Below, in pieces: positions 7,351 through 48,416 of a stretch of DNA of 49,353 nucleotides. The translations under genes and the position numbers were made by a program. Origin of the DNA: Flavobacteriales bacterium (GTDB taxonomy: Bacteria > Bacteroidota > Bacteroidia > Flavobacteriales_D > Parvicellaceae); NCBI GenBank assembly GCA_029244805.1, contig JAQWQH010000101.1, positions 1-49,353 on the forward strand. Direction: 5' to 3'. The notes below the pieces were generated by a model. It was not told the origin of the DNA. It was given only the letters and a program-made list of their open reading frames with translations, and ran no database searches. The first letter of the stretch is position 1. Each line of letters begins with the position of its first letter.

Positions 7351-9369
7351 CTATTCTGCTGCACCTTCATCAGAACCAGCTGGCTTGTAATCAAAACTCA
7401 ATACTCTAAATTGAGTACGCCTGTTTCTTTGATGAGCTGCCTCTTGTTCCTCTTTAGTCGTCATTTTCTTAATCACATCGCATTCAAGACCAACCGCTCT
7501 TGGTTGAACCTTACCATAACCTTTAGCATCCATTCTATCAGCAGGAATGCCTTTTGAAACTAAGTAATCAACGCAAGACTGCGCTCTTGCTTGCGACAAT
7601 CTCTGGTTATAAGCTGCTCCACCACGACAATCAGTGTGTGCCTGAAGTTCCACAATAATGGAAGGGTTATCCATTAATGTTTGGTATAAATCATTCAATG
7701 AATCCTTTGCGTTTGTTTTATCATTTACCAATAACTCAGATTTATCGTATGCATATTGCACCTCAGGAAAATCAATTACAGTCTCCACAGTTGCCGGTTG
7801 AATAAAAATTTCTTCAATAAAGTTGACTCCATGATCATATCCCATTGTTGATAAACTTGTTTTTGCTACCAGATATTCATCCTTACTTGCGTCAAAATTA
7901 TAATTAGTCTCCTTTTTTATAAATCTCTTGCCATTCTCTTCATCAAATTTAAAAGCACCTTCTTCGTTTGTGGTTTTAGAAACTTGCGAGCCATCAGTAC
8001 CAACCAATGTAATTGTAACACCAGGTATTGGATCTCCTGTTTCCTTATTTTTAACATACACCTCTAAACTAAATTGAATCTCAGGCAGGTTGAAACTGTA
8101 TAAATCATCTTTACCTTTTCCGCCATCTCTATTTGAAGTGAAAAACCCTCTGGTTTCTGTACCTCTTTCAAAAATAATCCCATAATCATGTTCAGCGGAG
8201 TTAATTGGATATTTCAAGTTTTCTACATTCTCCCATTTTTTCTCAGCAGTTTTTTCAGCTCTAAAAATATCCAATCCACCCATACCATGATGACCTGTGG
8301 AAGAGAAGAACAAGGTCCCATCTGTGCCTAAATGTGGAAACATTTCATCTCCTACAGTGTTAATTGGAGTTCCTACATTAATCGGTGCTCCCCACGATTT
8401 CTCTCTTTTATTGTATTCTATGTACCACAAATCCTTTCCTCCTTGACCACCAGGTAAATCAGCAGCAAAAATTAATAAATTACCTGTTTTGTTTAAAGTT
8501 GGATGTCCACATGAAAGAGAATCTGCACCTTCTGGTTTGAGAACTATCATAGTTGCAGCTTTCCAATTACTACCTTGTTTTTCCGCAAAAAAGATATCAC
8601 ATCCGATATTCTCTTTTTTTTCTCTAGGACAACGTGTGAAATATATCTGAGACCCTTTAGAGTTTAATACAGCTCCTCCTTCGTTATCCCCTGTATTAAC
8701 TGTTTTTGGCAACAATGTGGGCTCTCCCCATTTCCCTTTATTATCTCTTGTAGAGATCCAAAGATCCATGTAACTCTCTCCTGTTCTCAAATCTATCTCA
8801 TCTCCCGTTGAACCTTCTCTAGAGGAAGAGAAAAGCAATTGGGTATGTTTCTTATCTCCCCAGGCTGGAGCGTAATCATAGTGGTCCGTGTTCAATTGAA
8901 TTTCAGCCATTACAACATGTCTGGTTGGATTGTCTTTCCATTCCCTGGCCTTTCTGCAAGATTCCAATCCGGATTCAGCCACAACATCACCGGGCCTTAC
9001 CTCTAAAAACTCTTCATATTGAACTTGAGCCTCCTTATATTCCCCTTGCTCCTTCAAAACTTCAGCTAAATATAGTAAAACAATAGGATTCGTTCTGTCA
9101 TATTTGAGCTTTATAGCTCTATTGTAGTAGGTTTGCGCTTGTGCAGGTTCAATTAAGTTTCGATAACACTCGCCTATTTGAAAATTAATCAAGGCTTTTT
9201 TTGCTGGTTTAGCTTTCGCTTCAGCTTTTTTATAGAGTTCTTTAGCTGAAAAGTAAGATTCATTTTTAAATGCGCTATTAGCATCTTTCACGAAGTCCTT
9301 TTGCGAAAAAGAAGAGCTTGAAACCACACAAAAAGCTGTAATACAAGCAATTAATCTAAGAATATTCAT
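7351..9369 (-). CDS. OmpA-family protein with N-terminal TPR, PD40/TolB-like beta-propeller repeats and C-terminal OmpA domain
   Basis: Signal peptide, then TPR-like helices. Repeated PD40-type blocks follow (FSSSREGSTG, LIFAADLPGGQGGKDLWY, LFFSSTGHHGMGGLDIF, FFTSNRDGGKGKDDLY). The C-terminal OmpA signature is NQRLSQARAQSCVDYLVSKGI...GYG. Confidence 0.85.
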   Translation of the reverse strand: MNILRLIACITAFCVVSSSSFSQKDFVKDANSAFKNESYFSAKELYKKAEAKAKPAKKALINFQIGECYRNLIEPAQAQTYYNRAIKLKYDRTNPIVLLYLAEVLKEQGEYKEAQVQYEEFLEVRPGDVVAESGLESCRKAREWKDNPTRHVVMAEIQLNTDHYDYAPAWGDKKHTQLLFSSSREGSTGDEIDLRTGESYMDLWISTRDNKGKWGEPTLLPKTVNTGDNEGGAVLNSKGSQIYFTRCPREKKENIGCDIFFAEKQGSNWKAATMIVLKPEGADSLSCGHPTLNKTGNLLIFAADLPGGQGGKDLWYIEYNKREKSWGAPINVGTPINTVGDEMFPHLGTDGTLFFSSTGHHGMGGLDIFRAEKTAEKKWENVENLKYPINSAEHDYGIIFERGTETRGFFTSNRDGGKGKDDLYSFNLPEIQFSLEVYVKNKETGDPIPGVTITLVGTDGSQVSKTTNEEGAFKFDEENGKRFIKKETNYNFDASKDEYLVAKTSLSTMGYDHGVNFIEEIFIQPATVETVIDFPEVQYAYDKSELLVNDKTNAKDSLNDLYQTLMDNPSIIVELQAHTDCRGGAAYNQRLSQARAQSCVDYLVSKGIPADRMDAKGYGKVQPRAVGLECDVIKKMTTKEEQEAAHQRNRRTQFRVLSFDYKPAGSDEGAAE

Positions 9370-17093: not shown

Positions 17094-18026
17094 TTAAGCA
17101 TTCACCTCTAAAAGACCATTTGTCTTTCTGACACCTTCAGCACTTTCCATTAATTTTGCTTTTTCAGAATCATTCAACTCTATTTCAACGATCTCCTCAA
17201 TACCATTAGCTCCTAATACACAAGGAACACCAATTGAGATATCGTTTAACCCAAATTCTCCTTCTAATAAAGCAGAACAAGGAAACATTTTTTTCTGATC
17301 ACAACCAATTGCTTGAACCATAGCAGATACCGCAGCTCCAGGAGCATACCACGCACTTGTACCTAGCAAACCTGTCAATGTAGCACCTCCCACTTTTGTA
17401 TCTTCAACTACTTGCGTCATTCTTTCCTCAGATAAGAACTCAGAAACAGGAACACTGTTCCTAACAGCTTTTTCAATCAAAGGCAACATTCCTTTGTCGC
17501 TATGTCCACCTATCACCATTCCGTTAACATCAGAAGCTGGGCAACCCAATGCCTCACTTAACCTATATTTGAAGCGCGCGCTATCTAAAGCTCCACCCAT
17601 TCCAATTATTCTATTCTTAGGTAAATTAGTAGATTTATGCACTAAGTATGCCATAGTATCCATTGGATTACTTACAACAATAATAATTACATTGGGAGAA
17701 TGTTCTATTAAACTGGAGGATACAGACCTAACAATACCTGCGTTGATACCTATTAGCTCTTCTCTAGTCATACCTGGTTTTCTAGGGATACCACTCGTTA
17801 TAACCGCAACATCACTACCTGCAGTTTTTGAATAGTCACTCGTACTTCCACTAATTTTTGTATCAAATCCATTTAAGGAGGCTGTTTGCATGAGATCCAT
17901 TGCCTTACCTTCTGCATAACCTTCTTTAATATCGACCAATACTACCTCGGATGCAAAATCTTTAATTGCAATATATTCAGCACAACTTGCGCCAACTGCT
18001 CCTGCTCCTACAACTGTTACTTTCAT
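17094..18026 (-). CDS. mdh: malate dehydrogenase (LDH-like family)
   Basis: The ORF-track start at 18074 is a TTG that overlaps a promoter-like box. The ATG at 18026 gives MKVTVVGAGAVGAS (Rossmann) and about 310 aa. Catalytic region GGHSD. Confidence 0.9.
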   Translation of the reverse strand: MKVTVVGAGAVGASCAEYIAIKDFASEVVLVDIKEGYAEGKAMDLMQTASLNGFDTKISGSTSDYSKTAGSDVAVITSGIPRKPGMTREELIGINAGIVRSVSSSLIEHSPNVIIIVVSNPMDTMAYLVHKSTNLPKNRIIGMGGALDSARFKYRLSEALGCPASDVNGMVIGGHSDKGMLPLIEKAVRNSVPVSEFLSEERMTQVVEDTKVGGATLTGLLGTSAWYAPGAAVSAMVQAIGCDQKKMFPCSALLEGEFGLNDISIGVPCVLGANGIEEIVEIELNDSEKAKLMESAEGVRKTNGLLEVNA

Positions 18027-18071
18027 ATTTAATCTATTTTGTTTTTTTAGTTCACCACCTATATTCGGCTT

Positions 18072-18079
18072 CAAAACTA
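18072..18079 (-). promoter_or_regulatory. candidate -7 box (TAGTTTTG on the - strand) upstream of mdh
   Basis: The + strand reads caaaacta, 46 nt from the ATG at 18026. Confidence 0.5.
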
Positions 18080-18207
18080 ATAAAAGTAAACCGGTTTAAC
18101 CATTGTTTTTCTGGTTTTCTATATTATTATTGTGTATCCCATTTTTTATTCAGCAAACAATTATTTAACATTTTCATAGCCAAATAAAAAAACTAATATG
18201 CCAAATG

Positions 18208-18232
18208 GCAACCATGCATTAACAAAATCGTC
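18208..18232 (+). promoter_or_regulatory. candidate ECF-type promoter (GCAAC-N16-CGTC) upstream of the ECF sigma gene
   Basis: gGCAACcatgcattaacaaaatCGTCataag. An AAC-containing -35 and a CGT-containing -10 with a 16-nt spacer are ECF hallmarks. The motif ends 16 nt before the ATG at 18249. The same bipartite motif recurs at 20528-20552. Confidence 0.4.
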
Positions 18233-18248: not shown

Positions 18249-18812
18249 ATGAAACTAGAGCAGAGAGAGCTGGAAAGAATTGTAGATGGTTGTAAAGCCA
18301 AACGCAGATCTTCCCAACAAAAGATATATGAATTGCTTTACAGTAAAATGCTCCCTGTCTGTTGCAGATACGCGCGCAGCACAGACGAAGCAAAAGACAT
18401 GTTGCAGGATGGTTTCATCAAGGTCTTTGAAAAAATTGAACAATACAATACCGGGGGATCCTTCGAAGGTTGGGTAAGACGAATTATCGTGAACACAGCT
18501 ATTGATGGATATCGTAAAAACAAAAAAGAAGTTTTTATTGACGATGAATCTCGAATAAAGGATGAAAAAGATTGGGAAGATATTGAAAATGAATCTGAAT
18601 ATTCAGAACTTTCAATAAATGATATTGTCGAAGCTATGCAAAACTTATCTCCAGGCTATCAAACAGTGTTCAATTTATATGTTATGGAAGGTTATACTCA
18701 CCAAGAGATAGCTGACGAATTAGAAATTAATATCGGAACTTCTAAATCCAACTTAGCAAAAGCAAAGGCAAACATGAAGATAATGCTTACTGAGAAATTA
18801 AATAGATTATGA
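18249..18812 (+). CDS. RNA polymerase ECF-type sigma-70 family factor
   Basis: 187 aa. Region 2 (DEAKDMLQDGFIKVFEKIEQY...WVRRIIVNTAIDGYRK) and region 4 HTH (GYTHQEIADELEINIGTSKSNLAKAK). Confidence 0.9.
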   Translation: MKLEQRELERIVDGCKAKRRSSQQKIYELLYSKMLPVCCRYARSTDEAKDMLQDGFIKVFEKIEQYNTGGSFEGWVRRIIVNTAIDGYRKNKKEVFIDDESRIKDEKDWEDIENESEYSELSINDIVEAMQNLSPGYQTVFNLYVMEGYTHQEIADELEINIGTSKSNLAKAKANMKIMLTEKLNRL

Positions 18813-20122
18813 AAAATAATCAATTAGACAATTTTGAATCACTTATTAAATCCTCTTTGGATAAGCAAAGGGCAGTTTATGATTCGAATGATTGGAATAA
18901 ATTAAACAACAAGTTAGACCAAGTGAATAGACCATTTTATTCTTCTCCTTGGTTTATAGCTGCTTCAGTAGCTGCTGTTTTAGTATTGGCATATTTTGTA
19001 TCCACGCTTAAAACTGTTACTGAACCAACTCCGCTTGTAATAACTCCACAAGAAAATCAAATATCCGAGCGGAAAAAAGAGTCTGAAGCTGTCGCATTGA
19101 CTGAGAAAGAGCACAACGAAATAAAAGAAGTTTTTATTAAAGCTGACAAAGAAATTAGCAATAAAGAAAAAACAAACCGTAAAGAAGAAATCAAAAAGAA
19201 TACTAGTGAAACCAAAGCATCAGATACAAAAGAGGTTAAATCCCAAAATTTAGAAGACTCCACCATTTCTGAAGAGAACGGATTTATACCTCTTGATGAT
19301 GAATCTTCAGAAGAAGGTAATATTATTCCTGAGGAAATTGTAATCCTTGAAAAAGCCGATTTTCATATGAGCTCCTTTGATTGCTGCGAAGGAACAACTA
19401 TTGATTTTGTAGCCGAAAAACAAAACAATGTTGAATACTTGTGGAGTTTTGACGATGGGAATTACAGTAAAAAAGAAAACCCATCACATACATTTAATAA
19501 AGCTGGAAGTTATAAAGTAAGTTTAATTGTAAGATCTAAAAAAGATAATTCCGTTATGAACAGATCTAATGATCAACTATTAACTGTTTACCCTAAACCA
19601 ATTATTGAATTTGAATGGGAAATGAATGAAGAAAATGGAATTCCTTACACTTCCCTTATTAACTTGACGGAAAAAGCTGTTAATTGGACTTGGGATTTTG
19701 GTGATGGCACAATTTCAAATGAGAAAGGCCCAATTCACACCTATAGAAATAAGGGCCAGTATCTTGTAACATTAACTGCAACAAATAACGAACAATGTAA
19801 TAATACGATGAACAAGGAAATCATAGTCAATGAAGACTATAACCTCTTGGCACCTAACTCTTTTACTCCAAACGGAGATGGCCTAAATGATTATTTCTTA
19901 CCTGCTGCTCTAAATCGTTTAAATGGAAGTTTCACAATGACAATTTACAGTCAAACTGAAGGTTTGATATACGACACTAAAAACATTGACCAACCATGGG
20001 ATGGATCGAATCAAAAGTTAGGCACAAAATGCAAAGAAGGCAGTTACGTTTGGGTTGTAAAACTTACAAACGAAAAGGGTCAAACCGAACAATACAAAGG
20101 AGTAATACTATTGTTGAAATAA
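18809..20122 (+). CDS. single-pass membrane protein with two PKD domains and a T9SS type-B (gliding-motility-associated) C-terminal sorting domain; putative anti-sigma factor
   Basis: ATGA overlap with the sigma gene. About 46 hydrophilic residues precede a TM (residues 47-65, PWFIAASVAAVLVLAYFVS). A K/E-rich linker (~85-150) follows. There are two PKD-like units (WSFDDGN...SHTFNKAGSYKVSL; WDFGDGT...HTYRNKGQYLVTL). The C-terminus reads NLLAPNSFTPNGDGLNDYF...YKGVILLLK. Confidence 0.75.
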   Translation: MKNNQLDNFESLIKSSLDKQRAVYDSNDWNKLNNKLDQVNRPFYSSPWFIAASVAAVLVLAYFVSTLKTVTEPTPLVITPQENQISERKKESEAVALTEKEHNEIKEVFIKADKEISNKEKTNRKEEIKKNTSETKASDTKEVKSQNLEDSTISEENGFIPLDDESSEEGNIIPEEIVILEKADFHMSSFDCCEGTTIDFVAEKQNNVEYLWSFDDGNYSKKENPSHTFNKAGSYKVSLIVRSKKDNSVMNRSNDQLLTVYPKPIIEFEWEMNEENGIPYTSLINLTEKAVNWTWDFGDGTISNEKGPIHTYRNKGQYLVTLTATNNEQCNNTMNKEIIVNEDYNLLAPNSFTPNGDGLNDYFLPAALNRLNGSFTMTIYSQTEGLIYDTKNIDQPWDGSNQKLGTKCKEGSYVWVVKLTNEKGQTEQYKGVILLLK

Positions 20123-20527: not shown

Positions 20528-20552
20528 GCAACAATCTTGAATTTATATCGTC
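20528..20552 (+). promoter_or_regulatory. candidate ECF-type promoter (GCAAC-N16-CGTC) upstream of the T9SS cargo operon
   Basis: tGCAACaatcttgaatttatatCGTCtgata, ending 65 nt upstream of the ATG at 20618. Both half-sites and the spacing are identical to the site at 18208-18232. Confidence 0.4.
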
Positions 20553-20617: not shown

Positions 20618-20962
20618 ATGAACATACTGTATCCAACAATTTTACTCTTACTCTCTTTACCTGTAAAGGATTTATCAGCTCAAACGTCTGAAAGTAAATT
20701 TGTTCAATTCATGATGACAAATGTCGATTCAAGAGAAAAAGTATTGGAAATAGATGAATTTATGCGTAGTCAGCAAGGAGTTGAAATTTCTAGAGCCGAC
20801 CTGGTTAGTAAAAAATATTTATGCATTTATGAATCTACAAGTGGTTTAGACAGAGTCAGATTTGAAACATGGATGGAGGATTTAGGGGTTGAAATCAAAT
20901 GTTTCAGAGAAGGTAAATTCGGTACAGACAAAGTAATTGATCAAAAAATGGACTGCGAATAG
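20618..20962 (+). CDS. small secreted protein of unknown function
   Basis: 114 aa with a signal peptide (MNILYPTILLLLSLPVKDLSAQ). It is the first gene of the tightly packed operon. I recognise no family. Confidence 0.5.
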   Translation: MNILYPTILLLLSLPVKDLSAQTSESKFVQFMMTNVDSREKVLEIDEFMRSQQGVEISRADLVSKKYLCIYESTSGLDRVRFETWMEDLGVEIKCFREGKFGTDKVIDQKMDCE

Positions 20963-20964
20963 TT

Positions 20965-22767
20965 ATGAAATACTACATACATACACTACTTATATTCGTT
21001 GTCTTAGCTATTACTAATGACAGCTATTCCCAATGGGGAGATTGTGACAATTCAATTGAAGCATGCACCAATCCCTCATTTGCTGTAACCCCAAATGGTT
21101 TTGGCGCTATCGAAGAATTTCAATCAGGAACCATTACAAATCCTAGTTCCAATCCAAATGCAACCCCTGGAAACAGCGGATGTTTGCTTTCTGGAGAATT
21201 AAATAGTACATGGCTTTTAATTACTGTAACGTCCCCGGGAACACTAGAGTTTAGCATGGGCGATTTAGCTTCACCTGGCTGTTTTGACTGGATTATGTGG
21301 CCATACGATGCTAATACATGCGACGATATATTTAATAATGTGCTTCCTCCAGTTGCGTGTAATTGGAATGGGGCCTGCAGTGGCCTAACCGGAATGGCAA
21401 ATATTTTACCTATTGGTGCCAGTCAAGGAGATTTTGAAAATGAACTTAATGTTAATGCAGGGGATCAATTTATGATTTGTTTGTCGAACTACGGAGGAGC
21501 AAACACCAACATTCCTCTTAATTTCTTTGGAACAGCAGGAACAACTTGTGGTGGAGCAATTGATGCAACAATATGTGAAGGTGATACGGCGACAATATCA
21601 GCGCTCGACGGAGTAGCATATGTTTGGGAAATAGCAACATTTGGATTTATTACAACCAATGCTTCTGGAGATACGGCTTATGTAAATCCATCTACAACAA
21701 CAAGCTACCCTGTAGTCATAGAATTTGCTGACGGAACCTTCGCAAACGACACTGCTGTGGTTACTGTTATTCCTGCAATCAATGCTTCAGCAACAGTTAT
21801 AGAAGAGCAATGTTTTGGGGACGATACTGCAAGCATCACTATTGACACACCTGGCGGTACAGCGCCATTTGCTTTTACTTTAACTGGCCCTACCTCAAGT
21901 AATAACACCAATGGAATTTTCTCAAATTTACCCTCAGGAAATTATACAGTTGACATTACAGATGATACAGGTTGCTCAGATCAAATAATATTAACGGTCA
22001 ATCCAGGTCCATTGTGCTGTGACATAACTATATCAACTACTGGTGATTCCGTTAATTGTCAAGCGGACTGCTCAGGAATGGTTGTAGTTGATACAGCAAA
22101 CTCTCATCCTCCAGTCAACATCCAATGGTTTGATGAAAACGACAATCCAATTATTGGAGCTTTCAATGATACGCTATTTTCAGCGTGTACTGGGACGTAC
22201 TATGTTGAAGTTTCCGATATTGTTTGTATGAAAAGGGATACAGCAACTATTGGCATAAGCCTGCAGTTACCCACTGCAGTTTCCTCTAATGACACTACTA
22301 TTTCTGTTGAACAAGAAGTACCTCTTTGGTCATCAGGAGGATCCAGCTATATTTGGACTCCAGACACTTACCTAGACTGTTCAGATTGCGAAAACCCTAT
22401 TTCTACACCCGGAAATGATATCACCTACATTATTACAGTCACAGACTCTTTGGGCTGCAGTGTTGAAGACACAATAGAGGTAACTGTTATTTACTATCCA
22501 CTTTTTATTCCAAACGGATTCTCTCCAAATAACGATAATGAAAATGACATTCTTTTTGTCAGAGGTGCTGGTCTTGAATCTATTCAAATGCATATATTTG
22601 ATAAATGGGGTAATCTGGTTTTTGAGACATTAGACATTGAACAAGGTTGGGATGGAACCTTTAATGGGAAACCTGTAAATACTGGAGTTTATGTATATAG
22701 AATGGATGCTACATTGAAAAATGGAGAAACGCTAATGGAATCTGGGAACATAACATTGTTTAGATAG
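20965..22767 (+). CDS. T9SS type-B sorting-domain cargo protein with a Cys-rich N-terminal module and SprB-type repeats
   Basis: Signal peptide. SprB-repeat-like unit (CFGDDTASITIDTPGGTAPFAFTLTGP...FSNLPSGNYTVDITDDTGC) plus a second degenerate unit. The C-terminus PLFIPNGFSPNNDNENDILFVRG...GNITLFR is a variant type-B CTD. Confidence 0.8.
   Translation: MKYYIHTLLIFVVLAITNDSYSQWGDCDNSIEACTNPSFAVTPNGFGAIEEFQSGTITNPSSNPNATPGNSGCLLSGELNSTWLLITVTSPGTLEFSMGDLASPGCFDWIMWPYDANTCDDIFNNVLPPVACNWNGACSGLTGMANILPIGASQGDFENELNVNAGDQFMICLSNYGGANTNIPLNFFGTAGTTCGGAIDATICEGDTATISALDGVAYVWEIATFGFITTNASGDTAYVNPSTTTSYPVVIEFADGTFANDTAVVTVIPAINASATVIEEQCFGDDTASITIDTPGGTAPFAFTLTGPTSSNNTNGIFSNLPSGNYTVDITDDTGCSDQIILTVNPGPLCCDITISTTGDSVNCQADCSGMVVVDTANSHPPVNIQWFDENDNPIIGAFNDTLFSACTGTYYVEVSDIVCMKRDTATIGISLQLPTAVSSNDTTISVEQEVPLWSSGGSSYIWTPDTYLDCSDCENPISTPGNDITYIITVTDSLGCSVEDTIEVTVIYYPLFIPNGFSPNNDNENDILFVRGAGLESIQMHIFDKWGNLVFETLDIEQGWDGTFNGKPVNTGVYVYRMDATLKNGETLMESGNITLFR
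22267..22764 (+). repeat. C-terminal 166-codon module shared with 26606-27103
   Basis: Gapless protein alignment of residues 435-600 with residues 784-949 of the 949-aa protein. 108/166 are identical by hand count. Confidence 0.8.
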
Positions 22768-22769
22768 AT

Positions 22770-23837
22770 ATGAGAATATACCTACTTTCAATAACGATAT
22801 TGGCAATATTTACAGGGCATGCGCAGGACACTGAGTTTTCTCAGTTCAACAGTACGCCGTTGATTCAGAACCCTGCAAACACAGGCATGGGCAGAGGATA
22901 CAATAGAGCGAATTTATTGTACCACTCGCAGCATACTACAACTGGAAATGTTTATTCCACTATGTACGCATCTGCTGATGCCCCTATATTTTCCCATAAA
23001 ATGAAAAGAGCAAGTGGGTTATTTGCAACTGGATTACATTTCTACAACAACACTGAAGGTGATGCCAAACTGAGCACACTTAATGTAGGGCTCACTATTG
23101 CTGGTCATGTTGACTTAGATTATTACAATAAAGGAAGTGTGGGAATTCAAGGAACCTATAATCAACAATCATACAATACAAACGCAATTCAATGGGACAG
23201 CCAATATAATGGAACTTCCTATGACCCTACTTTACCCTCTAATGAAAATTTTTCCGGGAATAGTAATGTGTTTTTTAATATGGGAGTTGGCCTTTTATGG
23301 AAACATTTTTCTAGAGAAGAAAATCTAACCGGTATTGACAAAGGTAGTTTTCAAATTGGATACAGTTTAGTTAATATCACTAGACCATCTTTATCTTTGA
23401 TGAACAATTCAGACAAACAATACTTTAAGCACAATGCGCATTTTAAAAGTCTTTTTGCAATTGGCGAAAAGCACATAGGAGTTGCTCCTTCAGGAATGTT
23501 TTTAATGCAGGGTCCTCATATTGAATATTCAATAGGTAGTGCATTTCTATTTTATCTCAAGTCGGACACGAAATATACTGGATTCATTAAGGAAGCATAT
23601 GTTGGTATGACTATGCATTATAGAAATACAGATGCAATTATACCTGGAATAGTAATTAAGGTTTCTGATATTATTATAGGTATGTCTTATGATTATAGTA
23701 TTGGGAAATTGCAAAACTTTAATGGAGGAATGGGTGGATTTGAATTTTCTCTACAGTTTAATGACACCTATGGAACATTATTCAATCAAGGGAATATGCA
23801 CGTAACAAATGGTGCACAAAACTCCAGAAAATTATAG
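22770..23837 (+). CDS. PorP/SprF-family T9SS membrane protein
   Basis: Signal peptide, then the family-typical N-terminus QDTEFSQFNSTPLIQNPANTGM. About 355 aa with beta-barrel-like alternation. It lies 2 nt downstream of a type-B CTD cargo gene, as in the sprB-sprF arrangement. Confidence 0.8.
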   Translation: MRIYLLSITILAIFTGHAQDTEFSQFNSTPLIQNPANTGMGRGYNRANLLYHSQHTTTGNVYSTMYASADAPIFSHKMKRASGLFATGLHFYNNTEGDAKLSTLNVGLTIAGHVDLDYYNKGSVGIQGTYNQQSYNTNAIQWDSQYNGTSYDPTLPSNENFSGNSNVFFNMGVGLLWKHFSREENLTGIDKGSFQIGYSLVNITRPSLSLMNNSDKQYFKHNAHFKSLFAIGEKHIGVAPSGMFLMQGPHIEYSIGSAFLFYLKSDTKYTGFIKEAYVGMTMHYRNTDAIIPGIVIKVSDIIIGMSYDYSIGKLQNFNGGMGGFEFSLQFNDTYGTLFNQGNMHVTNGAQNSRKL

Positions 23838-23840
23838 TTA

Positions 23841-24260
23841 ATGAAATTAAATATATTACTCTTCGCCTTGGTGATTGCTTACAATTCTTTTGGTCAAAAT
23901 ATAAGCCCAAAGATAATTGAGTCTTTAGGAGCTGAAAAAGCGCATGATTTATTTTCAAATAATCTGGAAAAATATAATCATTTAATGGACTTCATTGATC
24001 ACTCGTGGTATGTTCAAGATGTTTCTTTTAAAGACTTATCAGATTTAAAGGATTTCAGAACTGTTCCCTTTAAGGGCACTGGCAGCAATTTATTTGATGA
24101 TGGGCAAAATTTCCGAATAGAAAATTTCAATCCACTTCTTTACGAAATTAAAATTAAAGATAAATATCCCACAGTTTATAAACTAGGAGAAACTGGAAAA
24201 ATAATTGTTTTCTATTCACGAGAATATTTCATTGAAAAAGCTAAGGAAACTAAATTATGA
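23841..24260 (+). CDS. small secreted protein of unknown function
   Basis: 139 aa with a signal peptide (MKLNILLFALVIAYNSFGQ). Its stop overlaps the next gene's start (ATGA at 24257-24260). Confidence 0.5.
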   Translation: MKLNILLFALVIAYNSFGQNISPKIIESLGAEKAHDLFSNNLEKYNHLMDFIDHSWYVQDVSFKDLSDLKDFRTVPFKGTGSNLFDDGQNFRIENFNPLLYEIKIKDKYPTVYKLGETGKIIVFYSREYFIEKAKETKL

Positions 24261-27106
24261 GACACGCACTTATAATTCTGTTATTAATATTTCCATGGCA
24301 ATTTAAGGCACAAGATTTTTCCATTACTGATGGAGACATTGCAACTTGTTTAGGAACTTTATTTGACTCTGGAGGGACTGGTGGTACTGGATATTCAAAT
24401 AATGAAAGCTATACGGTTACAATTTGCCCAGACAATGCCAATGATGTGATTACGCTAGATTTCATCAATTTTGCCTTAGACAATACCAACACAGCTATTC
24501 CTCCAGCAAATAATATTGATAATATAATTATCTATGATGGTGATAATACGGGTGCAACAACATTAGGAACATACACAGGCAATCAACTACAAGGAACAAT
24601 TGTCACATGTACATCACTTAACACTACTGGATGTATCACCCTTGTATTTACTTCAAATGATGTTGGAACGGGAGTATTTGCTGCCTCAATTACTTGCGCT
24701 ACGCCTTGTCAAAGACCATTTGCACAAGCAATATCAAATCCAGATACAATTGCTAAAATTTGCATAGGTGAATCTGTTAGCTTTGACGGGTCTTCATCGT
24801 ATGCACAAACTGGATTTAACATTGTGGATTACCATTGGGATTTTGATGACGGCACAATTGATAGTTTAAGCGGCGCAAATACAAGCTACACATTTAATGA
24901 CCCAGGTGTGTTTAATGTACAACTGCGCGTAATTGATGATAATGGATGTATCAACTCTAATTTAACTGATTTAAGTATTTGGGTTGCTCCTCCACCCGTA
25001 TTTAACCCAATAGAATATGACACGAGTATGTGCATAGGAGAAACCGTTACAATGACAGCTCACCCTGAGCAATATTCACAAACATGGACCGCTGTTCCAA
25101 ATGGAAACTTGGGAGGACCTCAATATGTGCCGGATCAAGTAGGACAATGCTTTACGACTACTTTAGATTTCACAGCATTCACTCCTGGCCAAACCCTTGG
25201 AAACATTAATGATTTTCTAGATGTATGTGTAAATTTTGAGCATTCATTTATGGGAGATTTGGTAATTTCATTAACCTGCCCTACAGGGCAAAATGTGGTT
25301 CTGCATCAACAAGGTGGTGGTGGAACAAATCTGGGTGACCCAGACCAGATGGATGGCGCTCAATTTCCTGGTGTAGGATGGGACTATTGTTGGAGTCCAG
25401 CCGCCTCTAATGGGACATGGGTAGACAACTCTACAACTAATACAGTTGTAAACAGTAGTGGATCGACATCTTTAATTCCTGGAACTTATGAAAGTATCAA
25501 TCCAATGAACGCGCTAGTTGGATGTGACCTCAACGGAACATGGGAAATCGAATTTTGCGATTTATGGGGAGCTGATGACGGTTTCGTTTTTAGTTGGGGT
25601 ATTAATTTCGATCCAAGTCTATTTCCTCCTTTAACTTCTTTTACCCCATCAATTGGAACCGATCAAGATTCTTCCAGTTGGAATGGCCCCAATATAATAA
25701 ATACATCTAGCGATGGAAACGAAATTATAGTTGCTCATACTGCTCCGGGGAGCTATGATTATACATTTTCTATTACGAGTGACCATGGATGTGTTTCAGA
25801 TACAACTATTACTCTCGTTGTAGAGCCAGGTCCAGAGGTTTTTGCTGGAAATGACACAAGCGCATGTACAGGTCAACAAGTTCAATTAACGGGAGAAATA
25901 TTAAATACCCCACCCCCTTCTCCTCCTTGTGTATTTACAATAGACATGGTAGACACCTTTGGAGATGGTTGGAATGGAGCATCTATTGATGTAATCATAA
26001 ACGGAGTATTAACAAATTACGGAATGCTCAATGGATCAAATGCAGCTTATACGTTTACCCTTAATGACGGAGATACTTGGAACATAGTATTTAATTCCGG
26101 AACATTTGACAATGAAATTATTTACACTTTTACGGACTGTAATGGAAATCAGATATTCACGGATGGCCCCAATCCACTGGTTGGTGCTGCTTTTACTTCT
26201 ACATATGGTAACCCGGTGAGCTATACGTATGGTTGGGACCCTTCAACAGGTTTAACGGATGCCACTATTATTGACCCTATATCATCTATTAGCGGACAAA
26301 CCACATACGTTTTGAGTATTTACCCAACTGGACATCCTCTTTGCGTGACGACAGATACAGTTACAGTTAATATAAACGATCCTTCTGCGGGACAAGACTC
26401 AACTGCAAAAGTTTGCCAATCTGGCACTGGACTATACCTTTATGATTATCTAGGTGACTCTTTAGATATTGGAGGAACTTGGTACAATGGTTCAACAATC
26501 ATCACAGATATTGTAGACCCATCTAATTTGGTTGCTGACACATTCCAATATATCATCGGAAACCAAGGCTGCATGGATACTGCAACGGTTATAATATATG
26601 CTTCTATTCCTGTTCCTATCTCATCAAACGACACATCCATAACGGTAGATCAACAAATTCCACTTTGGACTTCGGGAGGAGAATCTTATATATGGACTCC
26701 TAGTATTTATTTGGACAGCACATTTTCCAGCTCCGTAATATCTACTCCTGGAGAAGATATTACTTATTATATAGAGGTTTTTGATTCTCTTGGTTGTAAG
26801 GCTATTGACTCAATAAGTATCACCGTAGAGTACAACCCTTTATTCATTCCAAATGGATTTTCACCTAATAATGACAACAACAATGATGTGTTGTATGTTC
26901 GAGGGGGAGGAGTTTCACTAATTCATTTTATGGTTTTTGACAAATGGGGAAATTTGGTCTTTGAATCATACGATATGGATAACGGATGGGATGGAACCTA
27001 TAAAGGGAAGCATCTGAATACGGGCGTTTATGTATATCGGATGGATGCAACCTTAAAAAATGGCCAGCCCATTTTTCAAAGTGGAAATGTCACATTGTTT
27101 AGATAG
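24257..27106 (+). CDS. large multidomain T9SS type-B cargo protein (CUB-like, PKD, proprotein-convertase P-domain-like, GDGW module, variant type-B CTD)
   Basis: - Signal peptide.
- Residues 19-150 are CUB-like (C..G.L.DSGG...Y.NN..Y...ICP....I.L.F..F.L......D.I.IYDG......LG.Y.G.....V.S....L.LVF.S....G.GF.A.I.C).
- PKD (HWDFDDGT...VQLRVIDDNGC).
- P-domain-like (FEHSFMGDLVISLTCPTGQNVVLH...LNGTWEIEFCDLWGADDGFVFSWGINF).
- CTD PLFIPNGFSPNNDNNNDVLYVRG...GNVTLFR. Confidence 0.8.
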   Translation: MRHALIILLLIFPWQFKAQDFSITDGDIATCLGTLFDSGGTGGTGYSNNESYTVTICPDNANDVITLDFINFALDNTNTAIPPANNIDNIIIYDGDNTGATTLGTYTGNQLQGTIVTCTSLNTTGCITLVFTSNDVGTGVFAASITCATPCQRPFAQAISNPDTIAKICIGESVSFDGSSSYAQTGFNIVDYHWDFDDGTIDSLSGANTSYTFNDPGVFNVQLRVIDDNGCINSNLTDLSIWVAPPPVFNPIEYDTSMCIGETVTMTAHPEQYSQTWTAVPNGNLGGPQYVPDQVGQCFTTTLDFTAFTPGQTLGNINDFLDVCVNFEHSFMGDLVISLTCPTGQNVVLHQQGGGGTNLGDPDQMDGAQFPGVGWDYCWSPAASNGTWVDNSTTNTVVNSSGSTSLIPGTYESINPMNALVGCDLNGTWEIEFCDLWGADDGFVFSWGINFDPSLFPPLTSFTPSIGTDQDSSSWNGPNIINTSSDGNEIIVAHTAPGSYDYTFSITSDHGCVSDTTITLVVEPGPEVFAGNDTSACTGQQVQLTGEILNTPPPSPPCVFTIDMVDTFGDGWNGASIDVIINGVLTNYGMLNGSNAAYTFTLNDGDTWNIVFNSGTFDNEIIYTFTDCNGNQIFTDGPNPLVGAAFTSTYGNPVSYTYGWDPSTGLTDATIIDPISSISGQTTYVLSIYPTGHPLCVTTDTVTVNINDPSAGQDSTAKVCQSGTGLYLYDYLGDSLDIGGTWYNGSTIITDIVDPSNLVADTFQYIIGNQGCMDTATVIIYASIPVPISSNDTSITVDQQIPLWTSGGESYIWTPSIYLDSTFSSSVISTPGEDITYYIEVFDSLGCKAIDSISITVEYNPLFIPNGFSPNNDNNNDVLYVRGGGVSLIHFMVFDKWGNLVFESYDMDNGWDGTYKGKHLNTGVYVYRMDATLKNGQPIFQSGNVTLFR
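24311..26605 (+). repeat. about 765-codon N-terminal block paralogous to 27406-29703
   Basis: Residues 19-783 of the 949-aa protein align nearly collinearly with ORF-track residues 38-803 of the next protein. Identity is roughly three-quarters by eye over the first ~130 residues, and I saw only small indels. DNA similarity is clearly visible. Confidence 0.8.
26606..27103 (+). repeat. C-terminal 166-codon module shared with 22267-22764
   Basis: See the 22267-22764 entry. Both copies end in identical acattgtttagatag. Confidence 0.8.
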
Positions 27107-27348
27107 AGTTCTTAAAGTAGAACACCATCCACACCAGTTATTTTGTGCTACTTTTGTCAACCGGCAATCAAATCATTAAGTGTATTATTGGAATCCTATG
27201 TAATTTCAAAAAACAAACTAAACACTCTATATCAACAAATTAGAATAAATTAACTTAATTTCAACCCTTAAATTAAGATTTATGGTAAGTAATATTGAAG
27301 CAACTCTTGCAAAATTTAGTGGTTTGTTTTAAATCAATTACGAGAAAG

Positions 27349-30300
27349 ATGAAACATATATCTATCCTATTCATATTATTTATTCTGCCAGCTTATTTAT
27401 TGGCTCAAGATTTTTCCATTGCTGACGGAAACATTTCAACCTGCTCAGGAACACTTTTTGACACTGGTGGGCAAGGCGGAAATGGATATGGAAACAACGA
27501 ATCTTTCACCATAACTATTTGCCCTGATAATGCTAATGATATTATTACATTGGACTTTTTAAATTTTGCTCTTGACAATACAAACACGGCAAATCCCGGA
27601 AACAACATTGACAACATAACTATTTATGATGGTGACAACATTACTGCTTCAACCCTAGGAACATATAGTAATGGCCAACTTCAAGGAACTGTAGTTACTT
27701 GCACATCACTTAACACTTCTGGATGTTTGACTCTTGTATTCACTTCAAATGATATTGGAACAGGAACTTTTGCAGCTGCAATAACTTGTTCTACCCCATG
27801 CCAAAGACCCGTGGCTCTGGCGTCAACATTTCCTGATACAATTGCACGAATATGTAAAGGAGAATCAGTAAGCTTTGATGGATCAGCCTCTTTTGCCCAA
27901 GGTACATTTAACATTGTTGATTACCATTGGGATTTTGACGACGGTACCATTGATAGCACTAGTGGAGCCAATGCAAACTATGTTTTTAATGATGAAGGGG
28001 CTTACGTTGTTCAATTATATGTAATTGATGACAATGGTTGTATAAATTCTAACTTAACAAGCTTAAATGTGTGGGTTGCCCCGGATCCAATATTTAACCC
28101 TATGGAGTTTGACACTACTATTTGCCTTGGAGAAACTGCAGTAATGACAGCTCATCCAGAGCAATACGCTCAGACTTGGGCAGCGGTTCCTGATGGTAAT
28201 TTAGGTGGACCTCAATATGTCCCCGATCAAGTTGGACAGTGCTTTTCTACCGGGCTTACATTTGAAGCTTTTAATCCAGGACAAACCTTAACTAACATAA
28301 ATGACTTATTGGATATTTGTATAAACTTTGAGCATTCATTCATGGGAGACTTAGTTATATCGCTATACTGTCCCTCAGGACAGAGTGTAATTTTACATCA
28401 ACAAAACGGTGGAGGAACCAACCTAGGAGATCCAAATCAAATTGATGACCCTAATTTAGCCGGAACGGGATGGGATTATTGTTGGAGCCCAACTGCAACT
28501 AATGGCACCTGGGAAGATAATGCTACAACAAATACCGTTGTAAATAGCAGTAGTTCAAATTCATTAATAGCCGGAACTTATGAAAGTTTAAACCCAATGA
28601 ATTCATTAGTTGGATGTGACTTGAACGGAACTTGGGAAATTGAATTTTGCGACTTATGGGGTGCAGATGATGGATTTGTATTTAGTTGGGGAATTAATTT
28701 AGACCCCAGTTTATTTCCCCCTCTAACATCATTCACTCCTGAAATCGGAATTCAGTCCGATTCATCATTTTGGTCAGGACCTAATATTACCAATACATCC
28801 GGTGATGGAAATGAAATCACAATTACGCCATTAGCAATTGGTTCCTATGATTATACTTACACTGTAATAGATGAGCACGGATGCTCTAATGACACCTCAA
28901 TTACTTTGGTGATAGAACCAACCCCAGTAGCTGATGCAGGACCTGACTCTACTGTTTGCAATGGGGCAACCATTCAATTGCAAGGAGGAGTAGCAAATAC
29001 GCCTCCACCCCTCCCCGCATGCGACTTTACGATAGACCTCGAAGACACATTTGGAGATGGATGGAATGGAGCATCCATAGATTTAATTATAAACGGTGTT
29101 TCAACAAACTATGGAATGACGGCTGGAACAAATGCATCATATACATTTACTCTGAATGATGGAGATTCTTGGGAAGTCATATTTAATTCTGGAACATATG
29201 ACAGTGAAGTAATTTATACCTTTACAGACTGTAACGGGAATCAAATATTCTCAGATGGTCCAAACCCTACAATTGGATCTGCTTTTACATCTATTTATGG
29301 GAATACAACATCTTACACGTACTCGTGGAGTCCCACAACTGGTTTAACAAACCCAAACATTGCTGAACCGGAAGCGACAATTAGCGGACAAATGACTTAT
29401 ACATTAACTGTATTTCCTACTGGACATCCATTGTGTTTTTCTGTTGACCAAGTTACAATTAATGTTAGCAACTCAAATTCGGCTGGTACTGATGCAGCTG
29501 CAGTATATTGCTCAACGAACCCTGTTGTAGACATGTTTACTTTATTAGGAGGAAACCCTGATATTGGCGGTACTTGGTTAGATGGGAACTTACTAGCCGC
29601 ATCTAATATATATAATCCAGCTTCAAACATTACCGACATTTATGCCTATGTTGTTGGAACTTCAGGTTGTTCTGACACTGCATTCATTGATATTTCTGTG
29701 GGAGCACCATTTGGATTGAGCGTTCCTAACGACACTATTATCTGTGAAAACGGCCAGTTAAATTTATTTGTTAACGCAACTGGTGGTTTTGGACCTCCCT
29801 ACGATGAAACATGGTCTCAAGGACTTACAGGGAATGGACCTTTTACTTTTACCCCAGCTATTTCAGCATGTTATGATGTGTTCGTAACGGATGCAAATGG
29901 CTGTTCATCACCTATTGAAACAATTTGTGTTAATATAAACCCTCCAATTATAGTAACCGCTAGCGGAATAGACTCTATTTGTTCTGGTGACCAGAATCTA
30001 TTGGAAAGTTCTGCTATAGGTGGAAATAGTGGACCTTACAATTATTCTTGGAGTACCCAAGGGACAGCATTAGGAACGACAGAAGATATAACAGTGTCTC
30101 CGATAGTACAAACTGAATACTGTGTTACCATAAGTGACAATTGCGAAACAACTCCTGTAACAGAATGCGTTACCATAAATATGTATCCTCAACCCATTCC
30201 TTTGTTTACGAGTGACATTAATGACGGCTGCTATCCAATTGATGTTACTTTCACCAATAATACCGACATTGGATCTATAGGTTCTGTTTCTTGGGATTTT

Positions 30301-30990
30301 GGAAATGGAAACACATCTTCTCAAACGACAGCAGTACAATCCACATTCAACCAACCAATTTGCTACGATGTTTCACTTACAGTTACTTCACCGCAGGGAT
30401 GCTCTCAATCTGAAATAAATACTGCAATGATTTGTCCATTTGATTATCCAACCGCAGATTTCCAATTGAGTCCAAATCCAACAAACATATTTGATACAGA
30501 TATTTATTTCACCAATATGTCTTCTGAAGATGTAAATAATTGGCAATGGGATTTTGGAAGTGAAACATCCCCAACTTCCTCAATGACTGAAAACCCTACA
30601 GCTATATTTCCTCCGAATGAACCAGAGACGTATCCAATATCTTTAATTGTAACAAATGCTGATGGATGCACAGACACGACTCAAAACACGCTAATCGTAA
30701 ACAGTATTTTTACTTTGTACATACCAAATGCTTTCACTCCTGATGGAGATGGTTTAAATGATGAATTTTATGTTCAAGGAGCTGCTGTATCTATGGATAA
30801 TTTCTCTCTAATGATATTTAACAGATGGGGAGAATTAATTTTTGAAACAACTGATTTAACTGCAAAGTGGGACGGTAATATTAAAGACAAACCTTTACCA
30901 ATAGGTAGCTATGCATGGAAAGTTAACGCAAAAGATATTTACACTGGTCAGCAGCATGAATATTACGGACATGTATTAATTATCCGATAA
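27349..30990 (+). CDS. large multidomain T9SS type-B cargo protein, paralog of 24257-27106 with extra Ig-like repeats, two more PKD domains and a canonical type-B CTD
   Basis: The ORF-track start at 27295 is a TTG. The ATG at 27349 gives MKHISILFILFILPAYLLAQ (signal peptide). It has the same CUB-like, PKD, P-domain-like and GDGW order. Next come GGxxPYxxxWS repeats (GGFGPPYDETWS, GGNSGPYNYSWS) and PKD units (SWDFGNGN, WQWDFGSE). The CTD reads LYIPNAFTPDGDGLNDEFYVQG...GHVLIIR. Confidence 0.8.
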   Translation: MKHISILFILFILPAYLLAQDFSIADGNISTCSGTLFDTGGQGGNGYGNNESFTITICPDNANDIITLDFLNFALDNTNTANPGNNIDNITIYDGDNITASTLGTYSNGQLQGTVVTCTSLNTSGCLTLVFTSNDIGTGTFAAAITCSTPCQRPVALASTFPDTIARICKGESVSFDGSASFAQGTFNIVDYHWDFDDGTIDSTSGANANYVFNDEGAYVVQLYVIDDNGCINSNLTSLNVWVAPDPIFNPMEFDTTICLGETAVMTAHPEQYAQTWAAVPDGNLGGPQYVPDQVGQCFSTGLTFEAFNPGQTLTNINDLLDICINFEHSFMGDLVISLYCPSGQSVILHQQNGGGTNLGDPNQIDDPNLAGTGWDYCWSPTATNGTWEDNATTNTVVNSSSSNSLIAGTYESLNPMNSLVGCDLNGTWEIEFCDLWGADDGFVFSWGINLDPSLFPPLTSFTPEIGIQSDSSFWSGPNITNTSGDGNEITITPLAIGSYDYTYTVIDEHGCSNDTSITLVIEPTPVADAGPDSTVCNGATIQLQGGVANTPPPLPACDFTIDLEDTFGDGWNGASIDLIINGVSTNYGMTAGTNASYTFTLNDGDSWEVIFNSGTYDSEVIYTFTDCNGNQIFSDGPNPTIGSAFTSIYGNTTSYTYSWSPTTGLTNPNIAEPEATISGQMTYTLTVFPTGHPLCFSVDQVTINVSNSNSAGTDAAAVYCSTNPVVDMFTLLGGNPDIGGTWLDGNLLAASNIYNPASNITDIYAYVVGTSGCSDTAFIDISVGAPFGLSVPNDTIICENGQLNLFVNATGGFGPPYDETWSQGLTGNGPFTFTPAISACYDVFVTDANGCSSPIETICVNINPPIIVTASGIDSICSGDQNLLESSAIGGNSGPYNYSWSTQGTALGTTEDITVSPIVQTEYCVTISDNCETTPVTECVTINMYPQPIPLFTSDINDGCYPIDVTFTNNTDIGSIGSVSWDFGNGNTSSQTTAVQSTFNQPICYDVSLTVTSPQGCSQSEINTAMICPFDYPTADFQLSPNPTNIFDTDIYFTNMSSEDVNNWQWDFGSETSPTSSMTENPTAIFPPNEPETYPISLIVTNADGCTDTTQNTLIVNSIFTLYIPNAFTPDGDGLNDEFYVQGAAVSMDNFSLMIFNRWGELIFETTDLTAKWDGNIKDKPLPIGSYAWKVNAKDIYTGQQHEYYGHVLIIR
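27406..29703 (+). repeat. N-terminal block paralogous to 24311-26605
   Basis: See the 24311-26605 entry. Confidence 0.8.
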
Positions 30991-47348: not shown

Positions 47349-48416
47349 TTATTTCAAGTTAATCCGACCACCAATAGAGTGAATACCACCTAATGTTGAA
47401 CTTCTGTATCCGTAGTCAATACCAATCATTGTTTCATTTTTTCCTACAGGAAAATCAACAGATAATCCAGCAGATAAACCCGTTAGAGAATTCGTTCGAT
47501 TCACATTATCAAATATTCCATTTTCATATATATATCCCGCTCTTGCAATAAAATAAGCTTGCTTCAAACCACTAAATGTATATTCCCCACCTAATCTATA
47601 TTGATCTTTAGAAAACGAGTTCGAAGTATAAACAAATCCCATTGTTAATTTATTTGATTCATCAAATAAGAAGTCGTAAGAAGCTGCAATATGCAATAAA
47701 GAAGGTAATTCAAAAGAAGAAACACGTTGTTCCGAAGTAATAAGGATGCCTGTATTTGGGTTTAACATTTCTAATGAGATACCATCACCACTATATTCCA
47801 GAGGAGCTCCAACATTTTTTAAACTTATTGCAAATTTAATTTGATCATTTTCTCCGGTTGCATATCTAATTCCTATATCAACAGCAACACCCGAAGCTTT
47901 AACATTGGAAATGGCCTCAGAAACTACCTTCAAATTTAAGCCTCCCGAGATAGAAGAAGAAAACTGTCTTGCATATGCCAAATTAATATTAGTAAAAACT
48001 GGCTTAAATGTTCCAATATTTCCCTCTGGTAATTCAGTGGTAGTAATTGGAATGTCTCCGAAATTCATTGACATTATCGAAACAGCCATAACACCTGTCT
48101 CTCCAACGCGTTGAGCCAATCCAAATCCATTTAAAGCAATATCTGAAATACCACCTAACCAATTCGTTCTAGCAAAGATAATCTCTGTTTTATCGGCATA
48201 GGCCAATCCTGCCACATTCGAAAATAGTGCCTCTAACCCCTTAATTGAAGAAACTCCGGCACCGCCCCAAGATGAACTTCGTGACCATGGGTTTATTAGT
48301 AATTCAGTAGCTCCAGCAGAACCAGCTCTATCCTCGTTACCAGCAAATGTAGGAAGTGAAGATGCCAACATTCCTGCTAACACAATACTTACTCTAAAAC
48401 TTTTACTTAATCTCAT
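47349..48416 (-). CDS. PorV/PorQ-family (FadL-like) outer-membrane beta-barrel protein
   Basis: Signal peptide, then GSAGATELLINPWSRSSSWGGAGVSSIKGLEALFSNVAGLA. This resembles the N-terminal plug motif of PorV/PorQ/FadL-type barrels. Alternating beta-strand pattern. It lies 46 nt downstream of a T9SS CTD protein gene. Confidence 0.55.
   Translation of the reverse strand: MRLSKSFRVSIVLAGMLASSLPTFAGNEDRAGSAGATELLINPWSRSSSWGGAGVSSIKGLEALFSNVAGLAYADKTEIIFARTNWLGGISDIALNGFGLAQRVGETGVMAVSIMSMNFGDIPITTTELPEGNIGTFKPVFTNINLAYARQFSSSISGGLNLKVVSEAISNVKASGVAVDIGIRYATGENDQIKFAISLKNVGAPLEYSGDGISLEMLNPNTGILITSEQRVSSFELPSLLHIAASYDFLFDESNKLTMGFVYTSNSFSKDQYRLGGEYTFSGLKQAYFIARAGYIYENGIFDNVNRTNSLTGLSAGLSVDFPVGKNETMIGIDYGYRSSTLGGIHSIGGRINLK

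Follow-up and report, generated by a model that had tools for sequence, protein, structure and literature searches.

Anti-sigma factors that reach from the cytoplasm to the outer membrane are known in the Bacteroidota: the dual membrane-spanning anti-sigma (Dma) family was published in 2024, and its B. thetaiotaomicron member Dma1, which has a single helix in the inner membrane, then a long disordered stretch and an 8-stranded barrel in the outer membrane, spans both membranes (PMC10927553). Residues 1-40 of Dma1 pull down the ECF21 sigma factor Das1 (ECF, extracytoplasmic function), Dma1 is cleaved in a manner that depends on growth phase, and it is thought to sense perturbation of the outer membrane (PMC10927553). 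Dma orthologues include Reo/EcfO of B. fragilis and an envelope-stress-induced pair of P. vulgatus (PMC9308784). A type IX secretion system (T9SS) C-terminal domain (CTD) has a regulatory role in P. gingivalis, where the PorA CTD binds PorY, a sensor kinase, to activate PorXY-SigP (PMC7712824, PMC12152298), and CTDs of type B pair specifically with PorP/SprF-like shuttles (PMC12618676, PMC9143113). Here we describe a gene pair in a 49,353-nucleotide stretch of DNA from a Flavobacteriales bacterium (GCA_029244805.1, contig JAQWQH010000101.1, positions 1-49,353, forward strand; hereafter the window), in which an ECF sigma gene is followed by the gene of a 437-residue protein, a candidate anti-sigma factor that ends in a type-B CTD.

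We consider it reasonably probable that this pair is an autoregulated ECF sigma factor with a cognate, Dma-like trans-envelope anti-sigma factor that has a T9SS type-B CTD as its outer-membrane end (coordinates in Table 1). The sigma factor comprises sigma2 and sigma4 domains only in ~190 residues, the domain composition of ECF (group IV) sigma factors, with Pfam matches to Sigma70_r2 (1.9e-14, residues 27-93) and Sigma70_r4_2 (1.3e-13, residues 125-175) and a match of 4.5e-27 to the NCBIfam model TIGR02937 (94.7 bits, cut-off 42.9); its nearest NCBIfam match at the equivalog level, sigma_PG0214, scored 77 bits against a cut-off of 130. An original prediction, made from the letters of the window alone, had noted that the stop codon of the sigma gene overlaps the start of the next gene, and both the coordinates of the open reading frames (ORFs) and the shared ATGA at 18809-18812 were confirmed. 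The arrangement is probably that of a stress-type ECF sigma gene followed by the gene of a membrane-anchored inhibitor.

The pairing of the two genes is conserved. A scan limited to a single genome of each species gave 80 loci, every one from Flavobacteriales or Bacteroidia (Crocinitomicaceae, Cryomorphaceae, Salibacteraceae, Luteibaculaceae and Parvicella), of which two come from strains in culture, Crocinitomix catalasitica ATCC 23190 and Putridiphycobacter roseus SM1701; in a search of 5.8 billion proteins, full-length members of the family measured 415-465 residues, down to ~26% identity. In 78 of the 80 loci the gene immediately upstream, in the same orientation, encodes a sigma orthologue (42-92% identity), and the remaining two loci are truncated by contig ends; the co-occurrence of a sigma gene with a gene for a protein of transmembrane (TM) helix, PKD domains and type-B CTD, which had been put forward as a check of the original prediction, is therefore beyond chance. 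The gap between the two genes is -16 to +32 nucleotides in nearly all loci, including -4 (the ATGA overlap, n=13) and -8 (n=12). As in the window, the malate dehydrogenase gene mdh adjoins the pair divergently in 51 of 75 loci, so that the pair is a vertically inherited core locus. The rest of the window has the character of an ordinary chromosomal region that encodes SecDF, mdh, GyrB, RF, GSIII, MurB and RuvC. One metagenome-assembled genome, C_MB131, carries the pair on two contigs (L004 1420-2744; L006 6766-7333) with the anti-sigma ORF broken in both, which reflects either pseudogenes or long-read indel errors.

An AlphaFold2 model of the 437-residue protein (84-sequence alignment, mean predicted local distance difference test (pLDDT) score of 71.6) contains an N-terminal hairpin whose helices span residues 5-19 and 26-39 (pLDDT ~70), a membrane helix that is modelled poorly, disorder over residues ~64-180, and three beta-sandwich domains, of which two are PKD domains (pLDDT >90) and the last occupies residues 345-437. 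The N-terminus, in which W29 is invariant, the PKD domains and the CTD are the conserved stretches in family alignments, and the linker is unconserved; among 63 distant members identity is 54% in the CTD, 36-38% in the PKD domains, 34% in the N-terminus, 21% in the TM helix and 13% in the linker, whose length is mostly 86-139 residues (median 109) in members where it could be measured. The uncharged hydrophobic run has 20 residues here and a median of 19 in the family. Across 75 members the 15 residues before the helix carry on average 3.15 K+R and 1.03 D+E, and the 15 residues after it 1.13 K+R and 2.55 D+E. The TM-length run and this positive-inside bias together point to an uncleaved, N-in anchor and not to a signal peptide.

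Most of the anatomy given in the original prediction stood. It had reported no classical signal peptide, which agrees with the 46 hydrophilic, conserved residues that precede the 20-residue helix and with the N-in charge bias; its two PKD units correspond to two PKD_4 matches (1.9e-28 in Pfam); and residue 187 is indeed the first internal Met (Met at residues 1, 187, 250, 272, 334 and 377). The single TM helix also holds, although the uncharged segment is residues 48-67 and not 47-65, while the K/E-rich linker of ~65 residues had to be redrawn as ~114 residues (68-181) that are K/E-rich only in the middle. That middle stretch, residues 99-126 (19103-19186), is predicted with low confidence as one long helix and could be a stiff single-alpha-helix spacer inside an otherwise disordered linker. 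The statement that no shorter form could start at a signal peptide is correct for Met starts but overlooked an in-frame GTG at codon 39 (18923-18925), just before the TM helix, from which a signal-peptide-like short form is possible in principle; this GTG is unconserved, and the nearest relatives (L001, L002) have an Ala codon in its place.

The link of the protein to the T9SS lies in its C-terminus. The CHU_C match scores 56.7 bits against a Pfam cut-off of 27, and an alignment with five bona fide cargo CTDs of the neighbourhood shows that none of the type-B invariants (PN.F.P..D..N, W.G, Y, G) has been lost, which also holds for family members with as little as 25% overall identity. The type-B CTD recognized in the original prediction is thus intact, with the reservation of a borderline TIGR04131 score that is considered below, and the connection to the T9SS drawn there gains weight from the CTD being the most conserved region of the protein and from the sister systems described below. 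In its CHU_C/TIGR04131-type CTD and conserved motif residues the protein resembles the cargo of the F. johnsoniae pairs SprB/SprF and Fjoh_3952/3951 (PMC12618676, PMC9143113), and in having no adjacent shuttle gene it resembles the orphan type-B substrates of F. johnsoniae, which are served by a distant shuttle (PMC12618676). Known type-B cargo is made with a cleavable Sec signal and is soluble in the periplasm; in contrast, the window protein has a cytoplasmic domain and is anchored in the inner membrane by an N-in helix that follows 46 hydrophilic residues. With PorA-PorXY-SigP it would share a T9SS CTD in a regulatory role and an ECF sigma output on T9SS-related genes, but PorA is free, Sec-exported cargo with a type-A CTD, and the sigma factor of that system is activated through the response regulator PorX and not by its release from an anti-sigma on a tether.

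The cytoplasmic end of the protein belongs to a module of its own. When 1.84 billion representative proteins were searched with a profile of residues 1-70, 2783 of them matched at E <= 1e-3; in these, a unit of ~32 residues with the pattern F[ED]xxhKxxLxxxExPYxxxxWxxhxxxL (W-repeat) occurs in 1-8 tandem copies and always precedes one TM helix and a linker of low complexity. Sorted by C-terminus, the best 138 new matches comprised 61 outer-membrane protein (OMP) barrels (OMP_b-brl_2), 35 PKD+CHU_C proteins and 8 PorP/SprF proteins, one of which passes the curated TIGR03519 cut-off; of the rest, 26 were fragments and most others barrel-like, and no natural sigma-fused relatives were found among these 138. 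An ECF sigma gene abuts or overlaps the upstream end of the gene in all five non-CTD members with a readable upstream gene; for a sixth (P0190) the upstream gene is cut by the contig end. No Pfam or NCBIfam model covers the N-terminal unit, either in the window protein or in its barrel and PorP relatives, and a search of the N-terminal profile against the PDB gave spurious matches only, such as a de novo TIM barrel. Tandem copies of the unit (L024, L025, L032, L034, L037, L040, L046, L048, L058, L071; proteins P0121-P0147) number two in many Crocinitomicaceae members with PKD domains and CTD and up to eight in barrel-ended relatives; the extra copies might bind more sigma molecules or raise avidity.

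These features place the protein beside Dma1. Like the Dma proteins, it is encoded directly after an ECF sigma gene, is restricted to the Bacteroidota, and has a cytoplasmic N-terminus of ~40 residues, one inner-membrane helix, a long disordered periplasmic linker and a C-terminus bound for the outer membrane; moreover, its N-terminal unit also occurs on OMP_b-brl_2 proteins of exact Dma architecture. Unlike the 8-stranded Dma barrel, which is inserted by BAM, the C-terminus of the window protein consists of two PKD domains and a type-B CTD with no match to a barrel family, and its contact with the outer membrane would require either the T9SS or a partner of the PorP/SprF kind and could be transient. 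The modular class outlined by these sequences would combine one cytoplasmic unit with different outer-membrane-targeting ends. That the gene behind an ECF sigma gene encodes its cognate anti-sigma, as originally proposed, is supported by the conserved position of the partner, by the module shared with proteins of Dma architecture and by the N-in topology. A comparison of residues 1-46 with known anti-sigma N-terminal models, also proposed there, was unproductive: no Pfam match to the class I anti-sigma domains zf-HC2 and RskA or to FecR was obtained at E <= 0.1. Unlike FecR/FecA, the window protein thus has no FecR or zf-HC2 domain, nor is a TonB-dependent transducer involved, and FecA-FecR-FecI serves as an analogy only, for the relay of an outer-membrane signal to an inner-membrane anti-sigma.

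Four different PorP/SprF-fused relatives were examined, and the DNA of three was read. At these three loci we found a module of three genes, in which the sigma factor is 50-52% identical to the window sigma, inside the range of the window family itself, and has the same promoter as that family, GCAAC(C/T)-N15/16-CGTC. The second protein has 4-5 N-terminal W-repeats, a TM helix, a linker and a C-terminal PorP/SprF barrel, and directly 3' of its gene (overlapping or separated by 3 nucleotides) lies the gene of a 211-220-residue lipoprotein with a lipobox Cys and a C-terminal CHU_C type-B CTD. Read in this way, the anti-sigma of the sister lineage would be fused to the shuttle, with the ligand separate, whereas in the window lineage the anti-sigma would be fused to the ligand. 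Because the sister systems fuse PorP/SprF and co-encode a type-B CTD lipoprotein, an interaction between CTD and PorP/SprF is the likely sensory input. The module of sigma factor, PorP/SprF-fused anti-sigma and CTD lipoprotein appears to be undescribed. The OMP-barrel relative that was examined stands farther off, its sigma factor being 42% identical to the window sigma.

The sigma gene probably controls its own transcription. Upstream of it, in 68 of 75 loci, GCAAC-N15-17-CGT(C/T), mostly with GGCAACC as the -35 element, lies 3-21 (mostly 13-21) nucleotides before the start codon, and of 69 non-redundant upstream regions, 31-33 contain dyads of GCAAC and CGTY, where ~0.1 would be expected for each dyad. 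In the window this element sits in the ~170-nucleotide intergenic region between mdh and the sigma gene, and the predicted GGCAACC-N15/16-CGTC, with AAC in its -35 and CGT in its -10 element, is a typical autoregulated ECF promoter. A scan of 893 kb of loci with the strict motif found it to be rare outside sigma genes, and the cases that lie 13-25 nucleotides upstream of a gene precede T9SS cargo or its homologues: a SprB-repeat/PKD/CHU_C gene in L055, FG-GAP/Por_Secre_tail genes in L018 and L060, and an FG-GAP fragment in L047; a relaxed GCAAC -35 precedes homologous genes, identified by BLAST only, in L030 and L059. This pattern is suggestive of a cargo-gene regulon, though not conclusive. 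In 18 loci (L014-L016, L018, L026, L028, L030, L031, L038, L042, L059, L060 and others) the sigma gene has an FG-GAP gene of ~750 codons as its close upstream neighbour, in the same orientation. Two of these FG-GAP members, L018 and L060, were compared with Pfam, and both have a Por_Secre_tail type-A CTD as well.

A mechanism can be proposed in which the 46-residue hairpin would sequester the sigma factor at the inner membrane, by analogy with residues 1-40 of Dma1, while the linker (~110 disordered residues) and three sandwiches of ~4 nm each could, judging from their geometry, cross the periplasm. There the CTD would be recognized by the T9SS translocon or, as the sister systems suggest, by a PorP/SprF-type shuttle, and its state of engagement would control proteolysis of the tether and hence release of the sigma factor. 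In the direction we prefer, engagement or export of the CTD would strain or expose the linker, leading to cleavage, intramembrane proteolysis and free sigma factor, which would then transcribe its own operon and genes of T9SS-secreted, adhesin-like cargo. Secretion-coupled release is favored because the candidate targets are cargo genes; since the anti-sigma is made from the same operon and would compete for the same export route, negative feedback would match the synthesis of cargo to secretion capacity. FlgM, a soluble cytoplasmic protein that is exported whole through the flagellar type III secretion system, is an analogy only, in that sigma activity is coupled to a secretion machine. More tentatively, the 437-residue protein could be a genuine T9SS substrate kept tethered to the inner membrane and the first anti-sigma to be inactivated by engagement of the type IX translocon or a PorP/SprF shuttle, forming with the sister systems a FlgM-like secretion-coupled checkpoint; we regard this as possible but doubtful.

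Several observations weigh against this view of the pair. The link to B. thetaiotaomicron Dma1 consists of architecture and the shared module only; binding of the sigma factor by residues 1-46 is inferred by analogy and putative; and the sigma gene beside the OMP-barrel relative examined has no GCAAC promoter. The direction of signalling is pure inference, and passage of a tethered substrate through the SprA translocon is without precedent, as the linker would need either to stay in the pore or to be cut. The evidence for a regulon is partial: the window contains two promoter matches against 0.72 expected, so that the site at 20528 is within chance, although its position and strand fit; only 5 of ~16 FG-GAP genes are preceded by a sigma-type promoter (L018, L030, L047, L059, L060); and only 17 of 69 loci have a large type-B cargo gene 3' of the anti-sigma gene at a distance below 700 nucleotides, often an orthologue of the 949- or 1231-residue protein of the window. 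Two further points concern the CTD, for which TIGR04131 reaches 32.7 of the 35 bits that its curated cut-off requires, and near which no cognate shuttle is encoded, a PorP/SprF ORF within 6 kb being found in 0 of 80 loci. Together with a Foldseek search of the full model against the PDB, in which all matches were tandem Ig-like domains of a generic kind from surface proteins, these last two points would fit an anti-sigma whose PKD domains and CTD serve only for sensing or ligand binding in the periplasm, without ever contacting the T9SS, so that the CTD is no more than a beta-sandwich fold put to another use. Of the rival explanations this one weighs most, but we think it unlikely: the CTD is the best conserved part of the protein and keeps every type-B invariant, CHU_C is well above its Pfam threshold, F. 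johnsoniae has orphan type-B CTDs that rely on a distant shuttle (PMC12618676), and the other C-termini found on the N-terminal module also target the outer membrane, among them PorP/SprF with its co-encoded type-B CTD protein.

The architecture of the 437-residue protein is equally compatible with a sentinel substrate, of which the PKD-CTD tail would be degraded in the periplasm when T9SS export fails, so that intramembrane proteolysis triggers a secretion-stress response in the manner of RseA/DegS sensing unassembled OMPs. The response of OMP-barrel relatives to envelope stress (PMC9308784) and the proposed sensing of outer-membrane perturbation by Dma1 (PMC10927553) speak for such a role. 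It is nevertheless improbable, for the candidate regulon consists of T9SS cargo genes, the further production of which during blocked export would be counter-productive, and no chaperone or protease genes with the motif were seen in the DNA examined. The protein might also be ordinary T9SS cargo encoded by a merely co-transcribed member of the regulon, its N-terminus being a long, cleaved signal peptide or an artefact of a true start at the GTG of codon 39. That start would yield a signal-peptide-like n-region and h-region, and relatives are annotated at source as 'gliding motility-associated-like protein' or 'PKD domain-containing protein'. We regard this as highly improbable, and the cleaved signal peptide named in the original prediction as a possible refutation is contradicted by the same evidence: residues 1-46 are conserved as protein, with the invariant W29 and synonymous changes among close relatives; the module is repeated in tandem up to eightfold before the TM helix, unlike any signal peptide; the GTG is unconserved; the hydrophobic run is as long as a TM helix, and the charges on its two sides show a strong positive-inside bias; and the module stands behind ECF sigma genes in every case checked.

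The Dma-like trans-envelope anti-sigma that we favor appears to be new in its outer-membrane end. The original prediction knew of no comparable anti-sigma architecture, yet the general, outer-membrane-reaching design has been known since 2024 from the Dma family (PMC10927553). What appears to be undescribed are anti-sigmas that end in a T9SS CTD or in PorP/SprF: the Dma papers mention no T9SS, PKD or CTD variants, and full-text searches of the accessible literature that combined anti-sigma with T9SS, type-B CTD, SprF, PorP or TIGR04131 found no such protein. CTD-bearing and PorP/SprF-bearing anti-sigmas would wire secretion directly to transcription and would serve as natural reporters of the recognition between CTD and shuttle, and the Dma principle would widen from one barrel-ended family to a modular class in which a single protein spans the envelope. 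To our knowledge, little has been established about the control of gliding adhesins and T9SS cargo in genera other than Porphyromonas, and the recognition of type-B CTDs is an open question. If the window protein is indeed a tethered T9SS substrate, a checkpoint would match the expression of giant surface adhesins to the capacity for type-B export, and the T9SS could act on membrane-anchored proteins, which would challenge the assumption that its substrates must be soluble periplasmic intermediates. The system is testable, being conserved in the two cultured strains named above.

Table 1. Coordinates of the gene pair, its parts, its neighbours in the window and the sister modules.
Feature	Position	Strand	Remarks
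ECF (group IV) sigma factor, 187 residues	18249-18812	+	Sigma70_r2, Sigma70_r4_2, Sigma70_ECF, TIGR02937
Partner gene, 437 residues, candidate anti-sigma	18809-20122	+	PKD_4 x2 + CHU_C
Residues 1-46, cytoplasmic helical hairpin, putative sigma-binding unit (one W-repeat)	18809-18946	+	Alignments, AlphaFold model, profile search
Residues 47-67, single TM helix, N-in signal anchor	18947-19009	+	Hydrophobic run, positive-inside rule
Residues 68-181, low-complexity disordered periplasmic linker (N/E/T/S/K/P-rich)	19010-19351	+	pLDDT <50 over most
Residues 182-343, two PKD (Ig-like) domains	19352-19837	+	PKD_4 and PKD x2, pLDDT >90
Residues 344-437 and stop codon, type-B T9SS CTD (CHU_C)	19838-20122	+	Pfam CHU_C
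ECF-type sigma promoter	18207-18232	+	-35 GGCAACC 18207-18213, 15-nucleotide spacer, -10 CGTC 18229-18232; ends 16 nucleotides before ATG
Malate dehydrogenase (mdh)	17094-18074	-	Divergent neighbour of sigma gene
Weak second promoter match, GCAACA-N15-CGTC	20528-20552	+	66 nucleotides before first gene of downstream cargo cluster; tentative
Downstream same-strand T9SS cluster, candidate regulon or context	20618-30990	+	Not a conserved part of the module
Paralogous large type-B cargo (949 and 1231 residues)	24257-27106; 27295-30990	+	PKD, proprotein-convertase P-domain, CHU_C
Sister module: sigma / W-repeat PorP/SprF fusion / small CTD lipoprotein	L083 5424-8540; L084 3421-6480; L086 3439-6513		Also L085, L087

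The T9SS cluster downstream of the pair encodes, in order, a 114-residue ORF, a 600-residue SprB-repeat/CHU_C protein, a PorP/SprF protein (22770-23837), a 139-residue ORF, and the 949- and 1231-residue PKD/P_proprotein/CHU_C proteins. This PorP/SprF was considered as the cognate partner of the window protein and rejected, as it is unconserved near the pair in the 80 loci; its gene abuts the 600-residue cargo gene instead. Elsewhere, orthologues of the 949- and 1231-residue proteins are encoded directly after the anti-sigma gene (e.g. L026, L028, L031, L038, L042), and in the window a cassette of SprB-repeat cargo and PorP/SprF is inserted between these genes and the anti-sigma gene. Farther away, on the reverse strand, lie genes for a 672-residue TPR/CarboxypepD_reg/OmpA protein (7351-9369), whose domain set resembles that of the T9SS component PorE, and for a 355-residue protein (47349-48416) that scores 26.5 bits against a cut-off of 27 for Pfam PorV and is possibly a PorV-like T9SS shuttle.

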